From assembly GCA_004322205.1 (NCBI GenBank), contig SCSN01000008.1:18370-82369 (forward strand): DNA of 64,000 nucleotides, given 5' to 3'. This stretch comes from Patescibacteria group bacterium (GTDB lineage: Bacteria; Patescibacteriota; Minisyncoccia; Phycocordibacterales; Zambryskibacteraceae). The translations under genes were made by a program, and so were the position numbers. The notes beneath the pieces were generated by a model. That model was not told the DNA's origin. It did not search any database and saw nothing but the letters and a program-made list of their open reading frames with translations. Below, one piece after another: positions 6,407-44,284 of this stretch (positions are counted from its first letter, which is position 1; the number at the start of each line of letters is the position of its first letter).

Positions 6407-6500
6407 GAAGATAGTATACAGTTCTCCATAGAGTTGGCAAGCTCGTAATCTTTAGCGATTTTAGGCCTTAGCCGCAGTATATTTTGAATGTGGAGAATTA

Positions 6501-6529
6501 TTGACAAAAAGTTTAAGTATGATATAATC
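6501..6529 (+). promoter_or_regulatory. consensus sigma70-type promoter (TTGACA-17-TATAAT)
   Basis: TTGACA at 6501-6506, a 17-nt spacer, TATAAT at 6524-6529. It drives the GC-rich ORF at 6596. Confidence 0.5.
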
Positions 6530-6595
6530 GAATAAGATAGTATTTAGAGCATCAGTTTCACACCCACCACACCCACGTTGTGGGAAGGAGAATTT

Positions 6596-6922
6596 ATGAG
6601 TAGCGAAGCGGTTTCTGTGCCCGCACCGGGGCGCAATGAGCTCTTCGAGACCATCGAGGTCTTGGAAAGGGCCGTCCGCCACTCCGAGATTTCCATGGTG
6701 GAGCTCTCGGAGCGTCTCAGGGACTGTGTGGCGGAGGCCTATCGCCGCCACGACCGAGCGTGCTGGACAAAGAAGTTCGCCGAGCGCCGCTTCTGGGAGC
6801 GGCGAGCGATCCGTCTAGCGACCGTCACGCGAGATGAGATCAGGTCGCAGGTCCGGCAAGCCCTCGATGCTCGTCGACGTAAGAAAACGAAGGAAGGCCG
6901 CAGCGTTCAGGCCACAGCCTGA
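6596..6922 (+). CDS. hypothetical protein (GC-rich ORFan with canonical SD)
   Basis: Start placed at the ATG at 6596, preceded by AAGGAG 7 nt upstream. GC content is visibly higher than flanking genes. I see no recognisable domain. Confidence 0.5.
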   Translation: MSSEAVSVPAPGRNELFETIEVLERAVRHSEISMVELSERLRDCVAEAYRRHDRACWTKKFAERRFWERRAIRLATVTRDEIRSQVRQALDARRRKKTKEGRSVQATA

Positions 6923-6993
6923 ACTTGTCGGTCACGGGCCCCGCTCGCGCGTACGCAAGTACATGCGCGAACGGAGCTCTTTGTTTTTCGTTA

Positions 6994-7022
6994 TTGACAG
7001 CTAAAGAAACGGCGTATACTAT
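6994..7022 (+). promoter_or_regulatory. putative groES promoter (TTGACA-17-TACTAT)
   Basis: TTGACA at 6994-6999, 17-nt spacer, TACTAT at 7017-7022, about 36 nt upstream of the groES ATG. Confidence 0.45.
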
Positions 7023-7442: not shown

Positions 7443-9098
<1,656 letters not shown>

Positions 9099-9102
9099 AA
9101 GC

Positions 9103-9135
9103 TTTTTGGCTTTCGGCCGAGAGCTTTTTAGCAGG
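9103..9135 (+). terminator. putative intrinsic terminator after groEL
   Basis: Imperfect hairpin around the TCGGCCGA palindrome, followed by a TTTTT tract. Confidence 0.45.
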
Positions 9136-9149
9136 AATTAAAAATAATA

Positions 9150-9182
9150 GATAAAAAGAACCTCTCACTCTTCGGTGAGAGG
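9150..9182 (-). terminator. putative intrinsic terminator of the minus-strand HTH/HEAR gene
   Basis: Hairpin CCTCTCAC-TCTTCG-GTGAGAGG overlaps the stop codon and is followed on the minus strand by a T-rich run. Confidence 0.45.
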
Positions 9183-9788
9183 CTCGCATTTGTGTTCTCC
9201 TCCCTTTCTGTTTGGTTTCAGTCCGGCGGCGGTCTGCGCCGCGCGCAGACTTCCAAAGGAACTGTAATAGTCCTCTGCCCAGAACTTACCAAGCTCGTCA
9301 ATCTCCCTCTCGCTCGGAGTGTGACCAAGTTTCAGGGCGAGCACTCGTAAGTCTTCCCGCATAACTTCGCGCCTTAGAGCTTGATTCCGCCACCTCCGTA
9401 GCGAGAAGAGTCTCTCCACCGCCTCTGTGATGCCAAACTCCAGCATCATTTTCCTAAGAGAAAAGTTCTTCACGCCGCCCCGCCCCTTTCTCTTGAGGGC
9501 TTTTTGCCAAGCATGGAGCGATGTTATCTCCGAGTTCTCTCTTAATGTCCGGATGGCGGGTAGCGGGTCTTTCGGCCAGTTGGGCTTTGAATAGACACTT
9601 CCTGTCTTCCTCACGAGCTGTCTTACCCTCTCCCTACTTAACCCTCCCAGAAGATCGCCAAGCTCCTCAAGAGTGTATTGCCCGCTTTCGTAGAGGGACC
9701 TGATGGCGAAGAGCTCTTGGGGACTTCTTCTCTCGCTACTGCCCTGAAGGCTTCTTGCGGTAATCACTACAATGTCTCTCTTGTACAC
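9165..9788 (-). CDS. DNA-binding protein: sigma-70 region-4-like HTH plus homing-endonuclease-associated repeat (HEAR)
   Basis: The N-terminal block YTLEELGDLLGGLSRERVRQLVRK resembles sigma70 region 4. The C-terminal block LALKLGHTPSEREIDELGKFWAEDYYSSFGSLRAAQTAAGL matches the HEAR repeat pattern. GTG start with AAGGAG 8 nt upstream. The gene is GC-rich. Confidence 0.55.
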   Translation of the reverse strand: MYKRDIVVITARSLQGSSERRSPQELFAIRSLYESGQYTLEELGDLLGGLSRERVRQLVRKTGSVYSKPNWPKDPLPAIRTLRENSEITSLHAWQKALKRKGRGGVKNFSLRKMMLEFGITEAVERLFSLRRWRNQALRREVMREDLRVLALKLGHTPSEREIDELGKFWAEDYYSSFGSLRAAQTAAGLKPNRKGGEHKCEPLTEE

Positions 9789-9934
9789 TGTATTCTCCTT
9801 TCAGTTCTGTTAGAACTCTAACCTTTTTACCCTTGACGTCAATAATTGAGTATAGCCATTTCGGTTGCTGGCTGGTGTCTTTCAGAAATTTACGAAAGGT
9901 GATAAACTTCGCTAAATAGAAATAAGAAAAAACT

Positions 9935-10492
9935 ATGTATCTCTATATTGCTCTTGGAGTCCTGGCCTTGATTGTTCTCTGGATAATTGCCAGCTATAAT
10001 CGCTTTATTCGTCTGGTCAATCGCGCTAAGGAGGCCTGGGCGGATATTGATGTTCAACTCAAGCGCCGCTACGATCTAATTCCTAATTTGGTCAACACGG
10101 TAAAGGGGTATGCGGAACACGAGAGATCCGCATTTGAAAATGTTACCAAGGCGCGCGCCGCCGCCATGGGAGCTCGCAACCTGGAAGAGAAGGGAAAGGC
10201 AGAGAATATGCTCACTGGTGCCCTCAAATCTCTATTGGCAGTTGCCGAAGCCTATCCTGACCTTAAAGCCAATCAGAACTTTCTTGAACTTCAGCGAGAA
10301 CTCTCCGACACCGAGAATAAAATTCAGGCTGCCCGCCGATTCTACAACGGCAACGTCCGCGACCTCAACATCGGCCTTGAATCATTTCCGGGCAATGTCA
10401 TCGCCGACATCTTCAAGTTTGCCAAAATGGAATTCTTTGAGCTTGAGGAAGGTGAGAGGGCGGCGAGAAGCCCCGTTGAAGTCAAGTTCTAG
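9935..10492 (+). CDS. lemA: LemA family membrane protein
   Basis: N-terminal TM followed by YNRFIRLVNRAKEAWADIDVQLKRRYDLIPNLV, the LemA signature. Confidence 0.9.
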   Translation: MYLYIALGVLALIVLWIIASYNRFIRLVNRAKEAWADIDVQLKRRYDLIPNLVNTVKGYAEHERSAFENVTKARAAAMGARNLEEKGKAENMLTGALKSLLAVAEAYPDLKANQNFLELQRELSDTENKIQAARRFYNGNVRDLNIGLESFPGNVIADIFKFAKMEFFELEEGERAARSPVEVKF

Positions 10493-24366: not shown

Positions 24367-24984
24367 ATGACCGCCAAGGCCGTGACAACCGCGCAGTTAG
24401 AGCAGATCCGCAAGATGGCGAAGGAGAAGGGCGTCAGCCGCGACCAGTTCCAGCTGGGGCTCGACAACGGAATGTTCGCACGCACCCTCGACGAGCTCAT
24501 CGTCGGCAAGGTGACGGAAACACCAACGGGCCTCTTCCGCCTCGCCGTGGACTGGGGTCGGACGACCGAGGAGATGGTCCGGGCGTGCCAGTACGACTGT
24601 GCCAACCCGGATATCACCGAGGAACACTTCCCCCGGCCGCGCACGAGCGGCGTCGTGAAGGGCGACTACAAGCTCTTTCACTTCAACCGCAATATCTCAT
24701 CGGACCAGGCTGTCCGCGAGATACGCGCCGAGGGCTTCGAGCTTACCGGAGCGCACGAGATCCTCGTCTTCAGGGAGAAGTTCCCCGAGGAGCAGCGGAA
24801 GTTCACCATCGTTGGCCTCGGCGATCCCCTCTGGCGGCGGGACCGGTACGGCTACCGGCACGTGGTTGTGCTCCGCAGGCACGAGGCGCGCCGCTCCGCT
24901 GACCTGACCCTCTGGGAGGTCGTCTGGCCTCCGCTCTACCGCTTCCTCGCCCGTCGCCTGCCTGCCGGACAGGCAGGCAAGTAG
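24367..24984 (+). CDS. hypothetical protein (GC-rich ORFan with canonical SD)
   Basis: 205 aa, AAGGAG 5 nt upstream, very GC-rich by eye, followed by its own terminator. I see no recognisable domain. Confidence 0.5.
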   Translation: MTAKAVTTAQLEQIRKMAKEKGVSRDQFQLGLDNGMFARTLDELIVGKVTETPTGLFRLAVDWGRTTEEMVRACQYDCANPDITEEHFPRPRTSGVVKGDYKLFHFNRNISSDQAVREIRAEGFELTGAHEILVFREKFPEEQRKFTIVGLGDPLWRRDRYGYRHVVVLRRHEARRSADLTLWEVVWPPLYRFLARRLPAGQAGK

Positions 24985-43741: not shown

Positions 43742-44284
43742 CTACGCGCGCGGGACGGCCAGACAGCAGCGCTGGCTGAAGGCGCCCACGAGCCAGCTCC
43801 AGTCGAGCTCCGGCGCCTCGCCGTAGCAGTGGAGCACAGGCACGCGGCGGTGGCCGAGCTCGTCCACCAGGACCGTCCCGGCGAACACCAGGATGCGGCC
43901 CTTCGCCTCCTTAGGTAGGAGCTCGGGGTGATCCCAGTGGAAGAGTGCGTCCCGATAGCCGAGACGGAGCCCCTTCTTCGCGCGGACAAGCATCTCCTCC
44001 CAGCGGATCCATTCTTCATCACTGCCGGTGAAGAACTCGGCAAGCGCGATTCCGCCGCCGTGGAAAGGAGCATCCTCCACGACTTCCCGGACCCAGTCCG
44101 GAAAACGAACAGCGACGACCATCTTCGCAAACTTCGCGAAGAGGCTCCTAGACTCGGGTCGGGAGAGGCGGTGGATATCCTCGTCAGATCCGCCCTCCTC
44201 CCGGATCGTCGCGACTAGTGTCTCGATGATACTCGTCGCGACGCCCATGCCGCTGACGACAGCGGCAACGTCTTTCTTAGACAT
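43742..44284 (-). CDS. hypothetical protein (GC-rich ORFan with canonical SD)
   Basis: 180 aa, AGGAGAAGAG RBS and its own terminator. The overlapping 43651-44130 frame is Arg/Ser-rich and looks like an off-frame artefact. Confidence 0.5.
   Translation of the reverse strand: MSKKDVAAVVSGMGVATSIIETLVATIREEGGSDEDIHRLSRPESRSLFAKFAKMVVAVRFPDWVREVVEDAPFHGGGIALAEFFTGSDEEWIRWEEMLVRAKKGLRLGYRDALFHWDHPELLPKEAKGRILVFAGTVLVDELGHRRVPVLHCYGEAPELDWSWLVGAFSQRCCLAVPRA

Follow-up and report, generated by a model that had tools for sequence, protein, structure and literature searches.

The helix-turn-helix (HTH) of sigma-70 region 4.2 (PF04545) is the −35-binding unit of primary and group-3 sigma factors, and residues of its recognition helix contact the −35 hexamer. 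We know of no experimental study of the homing-endonuclease-associated repeat (HEAR, or HNH_repeat; PF18780), and no solved HEAR structure was found by sequence search. The closest conceptual precedent for a protein that joins parts of both kinds is WhiA: this host transcription factor contains a part derived from a homing endonuclease alongside a sigma4-like HTH, and it binds DNA mainly through the HTH (PMC3240954). Here we describe a gene in a 64,000-nucleotide stretch of DNA from a Patescibacteria group bacterium (contig SCSN01000008.1; the whole stretch is called the window below), which lies at 9165-9788 on the minus strand between groEL and lemA and whose 207-amino-acid (aa) product combines a sigma region-4.2-like HTH with a single HEAR unit. 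Group I introns with LAGLIDADG and HNH homing endonucleases abound in Patescibacteria (PMC13011429), hence homing-endonuclease modules are available in the gene pool of the phylum. As set out below, the protein is probably a multi-HTH, nuclease-free DNA-binding regulator, long resident in its hosts and possibly of mobile-element origin.

The N-terminal module, a sigma-70 region-4.2-like HTH, covers aa 21-66 (9591..9728; all features of this gene are on the minus strand) and was assigned from Pfam, from a family profile compared with PDB, from the helices of a structure model and from conservation. With the single protein as query, Sigma70_r4 (PF04545) matched aa 37-61 at 20.3 bits (E = 4e-4) over model positions 20-43 only, where the Pfam gathering threshold is 24.1 bits, and NCBIfam and PDB sequence searches returned weak matches, all of them to sigma-factor region 4. 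At the level of the family, 9 of 12 aligned relatives matched Sigma70_r4, the best with E = 9.6e-8, and the N-terminal family profile matched region 4.2 in Thermus/Taq SigA chains of PDB (residues about 286-323, E = 3.8e-7). The recognition helix, SRERVRQ, aligns with TRERIRQ of primary sigma factors. Among the 12 relatives, R54, V55 and Q57 never vary and E53 and R56 hardly do. No match to Sigma70_r2 was found in Pfam or NCBIfam, and 207 aa are too short to hold region 2; NCBIfam sigma-factor models scored 11-17 bits on the protein, compared with cut-offs of 241-464. As regions 2 and 3 are both absent, the protein cannot be a sigma factor.

At the other end, aa 140-191 (9216..9371) form a single HEAR unit, a four-helix bundle. 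PF18780 matched it over model positions 3-54 of 54 at 44.7 bits (E = 1.7e-11; gathering threshold 26 bits) and also matched all 12 relatives, with the family pattern LGrTP...FGS...AGL.PN, in which FG is conserved. Thus both domains that the sequence-only reading had named, a sigma region-4-type HTH and a C-terminal HEAR, have support from hidden Markov models (HMMs), the HEAR well above threshold and the HTH at family level, its single-sequence score being below threshold. The same reading had stated that no nuclease domain is present, and this stands: no LAGLIDADG, HNH, GIY-YIG, His-Cys box, PD-(D/E)XK or EDxHD family was matched in Pfam, NCBIfam or PHROG at E up to 10, and the structure model is all-helical. 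The protein is not an enzyme, not a sigma factor and not a homing endonuclease; alongside the missing nuclease domain, neither an intron or intein nor a border-repeat setting was found for the gene.

Between the two modules lies a basic, second-HTH-like unit of three helices at aa 75-120 (9429..9566), with a net charge of +7 and a conserved DP start and G. It is followed by the start of a long basic helix at aa 121-139 (9372..9428), which carries the signature (E)RLF(r/s)LR(k/r)(w); R126, L127 and R131 of this signature are invariant in the 12 relatives. A search with a profile of the middle domain gave no matches. An AlphaFold2 model built on the family alignment (mean pLDDT 81.9) consists of three small helical bundles, with HTH helices at 23-34, 40-46 and 52-65, second-unit helices at 76-84, 91-100 and 108-118, and a long helix at 121-154, after which three short helices complete the HEAR unit. 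The HEAR part of the model resembles TetR-type HTH domains, and Foldseek similarity to DnaA domain IV and to the DNA-binding domains of ParB/KorB was weak (E at least 0.17). The isoelectric point of the whole protein is about 10, with the positive charge located in the middle unit and the long helix (+4).

This architecture is that of a family. About a dozen proteins of 180-280 aa align end to end with the query, the 12 aligned full-length relatives having 27-38% identity to the window protein and the whole family ranging from 27 to 53%. At least 25 relatives from unrelated contigs share the same nuclease-free layout of sigma4-like HTH, basic middle unit with RLFRLRK, and HEAR, and the family alignment follows the pattern TLEE.g…G.sRERVRQ for the HTH, DP..il..R…G.s…lG for the middle, then RLFRLRK, then LGrTP…FGSl..Aq.AGL.PN. 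The N-terminal profile added about fifteen members, all metagenomic singletons with precomputed Pfam assignments of PF18780 and PF04545, and a JGI metagenome scan returned only loci already known. The family is rare and uncharacterised; its architecture joins two domain families that are already known to a middle part of its own. The window protein has one HEAR copy, without tandem repeats; some members (P0037, P0057, P0098 and P0127) have two, and the extra unit of such members sits at either end.

The HEAR repeat is widespread, and HEAR proteins at large are of a different build. An exhaustive profile search (E ≤ 0.001) gave 2,242 cluster representatives, mostly long proteins with 4-14 HEAR repeats. 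Among 74 multi-repeat proteins, fusions to LAGLIDADG_3 (15), HNH (9) and helicase/ResIII (8-9) were observed, and the repeats cross-match Sigma70_r3 (22 of 74) and LexA_DNA_bind (9 of 74). The arrays reach up to 14 units, and repeats fused to SF2 helicase/ResIII modules, small terminase subunits and RHH domains were also seen. Because of these cross-matches and fusions, taken together with the TetR-like model, HEAR would fit an HTH-type nucleic-acid-binding module.

The gene occupies a fixed slot. Its order in the window is SBP_bac_5 (−), SecG (−), groES-groEL (+), the sigma4-HEAR open reading frame (ORF) (−), then LemA, a 73-aa ORF, an HtpX-type M48 protease and GGDEF (+). A comparison of neighbourhoods in relatives, which the sequence-only reading had proposed, found the same slot, with groEL convergent and lemA-htpX divergent, in four lineages of the ultra-small Patescibacteria, namely the window, L086 (P0119, on a 108-kb contig), L087-L089 (P0091) and L090-L092 (P0057). 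Compared in pairs, the four ORF products share 37-53% identity, the LemA proteins 72-85% and the GroEL proteins 71-78%, with L086 and L087 forming the closest pair for all three proteins, and the GC contents of ORF and locus go together (0.54/0.50, 0.43/0.42, 0.46/0.46 and 0.39/0.41). A scan for GroEL in species-representative genomes gave 80 loci, and the order SBP5-SecG-groES-groEL-LemA-HtpX was kept in about 45 Paceibacteria-type genomes. In a neighbour-joining tree of GroEL the carriers fall within one subclade, alongside the non-carriers L006, L007, L008, L011 and L013, and no remnants of the gene were found in the empty sites of these non-carriers. Only short chance matches were found as border repeats or target duplications at the ORF, and no mobility genes adjoin it.

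A recent horizontal insertion was considered and rejected, as the slot is the same in four lineages, divergence follows that of the host genes and GC fits the locus. Since ORF divergence and GC both follow the host genes, the simplest reading of the sequence comparison is one old acquisition followed by vertical descent, in which the sequence evolved fast while selection kept the protein intact and the gene was lost several times; the gene may instead have been gained repeatedly at this specific site. Between groEL and lemA the distance varies from about 170 to 1,400 bp, and in some genomes unrelated ORFs lie in this gap. In L009, L021, L028, L029, L046, L047 and L050 these include secreted or membrane proteins of 218-347 aa, and a zinc-ribbon-like protein of 113 aa and a receiver-domain-like protein of 137 aa were also found there; the slot is a variable region within an otherwise conserved block. 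In the pair L090 and L091, ORF and groEL are 100% identical and all differences are in lemA, hence the pair is uninformative as a test of dN/dS (the ratio of non-synonymous to synonymous substitution rates) or of transfer. In the same pair (L090 3619-4057 against L091 1176-1614), 18% of positions differ within lemA and the genes beyond also differ, a pattern that places a breakpoint of recombination between close strains within lemA.

The ORF at 9165..9788 is a real, expressed-looking gene. It was taken from the list of open reading frames with a GTG start and a TGA stop, its product is a 100% match to the NCBI hypothetical protein EPN83_01425 (Patescibacteria group bacterium), and the GTG start is supported because the N-terminal segment is kept in the orthologues. 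The signals named in the sequence-only reading were all located on direct inspection: a ribosome-binding site AAGGAG at 9795..9800, 6 nt before the GTG; a terminator of its own, in which a hairpin at 9185..9158 (11-bp stem with 6 GC pairs) is followed by the T-run TTTTTATCTA, the whole element (9148..9185) covering the last six codons and the TGA stop; and a position beside the 3′ end of groEL (7452-9098, +), which ends 66 bp away in convergent orientation and has its own terminator-like hairpin at 9103-9123. On the upstream side, lemA (9935-10492, +) starts 146 bp away on the opposite strand. A consensus scan found a promoter-like site, TTGACG-16-TAGAGT, at 9815..9842; one such site was found upstream of the ORF where 0.7 would be expected by chance, which makes it weak alone. 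Its −35 element is part of TTGACGTCAA (9833-9842), a perfect palindrome of 10 bp in the region common with the divergent lemA, and the palindrome gives a −35-like hexamer on either strand. A 58-aa ORF (9013-9189, −), antisense to the 3′ end of groEL, begins in the last codons of the HEAR gene and is preceded by AGGAGAACACA, a near repeat of the ribosome-binding region of that gene (direct repeat D4, 9191-9201 and 9789-9799); this ORF reads across the terminator and is probably due to chance.

The description of the gene as GC-rich holds only marginally. Its GC content of 0.537 is slightly above the mean of 0.497 over 49 window genes (standard deviation 0.053, i.e. +0.75 standard deviations), groEL next to it has 0.528, and the orthologues in lower-GC genomes are not GC-rich. 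In codon-usage distance it ranks 7th of the 49 genes. The suggested check of GC and codon usage was not diagnostic, and the gene as a compositional outlier was rejected. No paralogue of the protein was found within the window.

The gene is placed between two classical stress operons. With up to 3 mismatches allowed, no controlling inverted repeat of chaperone expression (CIRCE) was found in the window, nor was one found in any Paceibacteria-type locus, with or without the sigma4-HEAR gene, and 14 outgroup loci were positive, perfect elements among them. In detail, proteobacterial loci and some from other Patescibacteria (L057, L063-L085) have CIRCE upstream of groES with 0-2 mismatches, and it is absent from every SBP5-SecG-groES-groEL-LemA-HtpX locus among L006-L060. 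The sigma4-HEAR protein has no match to the HrcA family in Pfam, and a gene-linked replacement of HrcA/CIRCE was rejected, as CIRCE is absent across the clade irrespective of the gene. A TTGACA-like box was found upstream of each orthologue, which is also expected of any promoter, and no Rfam match was found around the ORF or in a GC-rich island upstream of groES. That island (6500-7000, between SecG and groES; GC 0.62-0.64, GC at third codon positions 0.71) contains an ORF of 108-114 aa (6578/6596-6922, +) which matches no Pfam family and is without homologues among the fetched loci. A promoter close to consensus, TTGACA-16-TATAAT (about 6502-6529), precedes the island ORF, and a second TTGACA promoter, for groES, follows the island. 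L086 has a promoter-driven, GC-rich insert of similar size at the same SecG-groES position, and no homology between the two inserts was detectable.

Outside the Patescibacteria carriers the family has other company. High-GC relatives lie on contigs of 0.59-0.71 GC with neighbours unlike those of the carriers; one adjoins an IS3-type rve transposase, and three are within long co-directional arrays of small overlapping genes, among which several match PHROG families. Genes of these arrays encode a phage-type HNH endonuclease, an N6/N4 DNA methyltransferase, a cI-like HTH_3 protein, a primosomal-like DUF1376 protein, RadC and a tyrosine integrase. A low-GC relative, P0102 (L093), adjoins glycosyltransferase genes. 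Due to the arrays and the transposase neighbour, the broader family looks like regulators of phages or integrative elements. Neither 50,697 phage genomes (INPHARED) nor IMG/VR yielded a homologue, and PADLOC defence models matched neither the window protein nor its three syntenic orthologues, distant relatives giving only generic HTH matches to mad1. Near the ORF itself, which is intergenic between groEL and lemA and lies outside any intron or intein, no RNA of group I/II introns was detected and no flanking pseudogene fragment of a nuclease was found. A distant mobile-element origin is plausible for the gene, and there is a faint indication that the family as a whole came from mobile elements and was kept by the host.

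The protein is built of three helical modules: at its N-terminus an HTH with homology to sigma region 4.2, then the basic middle unit with its arginine-rich long helix, and at its C-terminus a HEAR similar to the TetR N-terminal domain. We propose that it is functional and would act as a transcription regulator which reads an extended site with several HTH modules. DNA binding is suggested because fold and sequence resemble DNA-binding HTHs and the −35-contact residues are conserved, and from sequence and model we hold, with moderate confidence, that the protein would bind DNA sequence-specifically and regulate transcription. Since the recognition residues of sigma 4.2 are conserved family-wide, the first module may perhaps read a −35-like TTGACA motif; its targets may include the promoter region of the gene itself, common with lemA-htpX, or other promoters with TTGACA-like −35 elements. 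Several observations weigh against this proposal. The Sigma70_r4 score of the single protein is below the Pfam threshold, and the HEAR core is slightly acidic (net −2), hence HEAR could be a protein-binding and not a DNA-binding module. Moreover, no operator-like motif shared among the four ORF-lemA intergenic regions was found, and a comparison of ORF-lemA with groES upstream regions, both inside one genome and across genomes, gave no linking motif. Finally, no homologue of the ORF was detected by tblastn or the family HMM in the about 45 syntenic Paceibacteria-type loci, so that the gene is not needed to run the groESL and lemA-htpX operons.

One rival explanation is a dedicated heat-shock or envelope-stress regulator of groESL and lemA-htpX in bacteria without HrcA/CIRCE. 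The fixed position in four lineages between these operons, divergent from lemA-htpX, the missing CIRCE upstream of groES where outgroup loci have it, and the −35-like TTGACA/TTGACG boxes in the shared promoter region would all agree with such a role. However, CIRCE is missing with or without the gene, most genomes with the same operon order lack the gene and run their operons without it, no common candidate operator was found, and relatives outside Patescibacteria have unrelated neighbours; a local stress-operon regulator is for these reasons a minority hypothesis, and an unlikely one. We consider a more elaborate version very unlikely, in which a clade-specific, domesticated module from the DNA-binding machinery of homing endonucleases or phages became a novel type of promoter-targeting regulator whose sigma-4.2-like helix sits on TTGACA boxes, where it either helps the housekeeping sigma factor or competes with it, and controls groESL/lemA-htpX in CIRCE-less Paceibacteria. 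If it were true, HEAR would be a previously unrecognised DNA-reading module, and the middle and HEAR modules would add specificity. The sigma4-like domain might instead dock on the beta-flap of RNA polymerase or on a partner of sigma region 4, as a sigma mimic or anti-sigma-type factor which would modulate transcription through contacts between proteins and not at an operator; the sequence-only reading had raised an anti-sigma-like DNA-binding factor. None of the present results speaks for an anti-sigma role. Conservation is strongest in the DNA-recognition helix (R-E-R-V-R-Q), the high isoelectric point and the presence of two more HTH-like modules favour DNA binding, no anti-sigma family was matched in Pfam or NCBIfam and no sigma or anti-sigma gene adjoins, which together make this rival distinctly unlikely; judged from sequence, an anti-sigma-like role appears less likely than plain DNA binding.

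Two other explanations concern the descent of the gene. It could be the cargo of a site-specific mobile element, i.e. a phage or island regulator repeatedly inserted at a groEL-lemA hot-spot and serving the element and not the host. Its patchy distribution within one subclade, in which the sisters L006 and L011 lack it, the unrelated genes held by the same gap in other genomes, and relatives in phage-like arrays or beside a transposase speak for this idea, but the gene stands alone, its borders are free of integrase, nuclease, repeats and target duplication, its divergence scales with the flanking host genes, its GC is ameliorated, the phage collections hold no homologue and the empty sites hold no remnants, and we regard it as unlikely. 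The sequence-only reading had also suggested a regulatory remnant of a homing-endonuclease gene, which in its strict form would be a decaying DNA-binding tail left after nuclease loss and without cell function. In favour of this idea, LAGLIDADG or HNH nucleases are the typical partners of HEAR repeats, the phylum is rich in intron-borne homing endonucleases (PMC13011429), and most related genomes lack the gene. Nevertheless, the same nuclease-free layout is kept in at least 25 proteins of unrelated contigs at 27-53% identity, four syntenic orthologues are intact with host-like composition, the gene has its own ribosome-binding site, promoter-like site and terminator, and it is intergenic with neither intron RNA nor nuclease fragments around it. 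A conserved, intact architecture at one slot indicates that the gene is kept by selection and is not in decay; the suggestion of a remnant was not borne out and is highly improbable. The multi-HTH regulator, long resident and possibly derived from a mobile element, is thus the explanation that we favour.

Two further short GC-rich islands of the window, at 24367-24984 (+) and 43742-44284 (−), have 0.65 GC and 0.80-0.87 GC at third codon positions and encode hypothetical ORFs of 180-205 aa. They have no Pfam match, are unrelated to each other and to the island at 6578-6922, and are the real compositional outliers of the window.

As a favoured multi-HTH regulator, the protein would be a testable, regulator-like candidate for Patescibacteria, whose transcription factors are almost unstudied, and as a compact protein with a single repeat, a model of good confidence and an identifiable sigma-type HTH beside the repeat, it offers a tractable handle on the role of HEAR; if it is a generic small DNA binder, it would be of local interest only. 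In comparison with known systems, it would function most like a small transcription factor of several HTHs. Its likeness to the TetR-family N-terminal domain is that of a generic bundle of three or four HTH helices, without sequence similarity and without the ligand-binding C-terminal domain of that family, and with DnaA domain IV and ParB/KorB it has no sequence relationship, nor does it have an AAA+ or a ParB N-terminal domain. With sigma factors it shares a homologous HTH, which here is N-terminal and followed by two unrelated helical modules, with no region 2 or 3. With HEAR proteins it has a bona fide repeat in common, but while the usual members have 4-14 repeats and often a nuclease or helicase, the window protein has one repeat and neither of these, and pairs it with a sigma4-like HTH and the family-specific middle domain. 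WhiA, finally, a transcription factor of Gram-positive bacteria, consists of two degenerate LAGLIDADG domains and a C-terminal HTH_WhiA; the window protein has no LAGLIDADG and no Pfam match to WhiA, its order is reversed, and what it has in relation to homing endonucleases is an accessory repeat where WhiA has a nuclease scaffold. Following WhiA, the protein would be the second case in which parts associated with homing endonucleases were recruited alongside a sigma4-like HTH.
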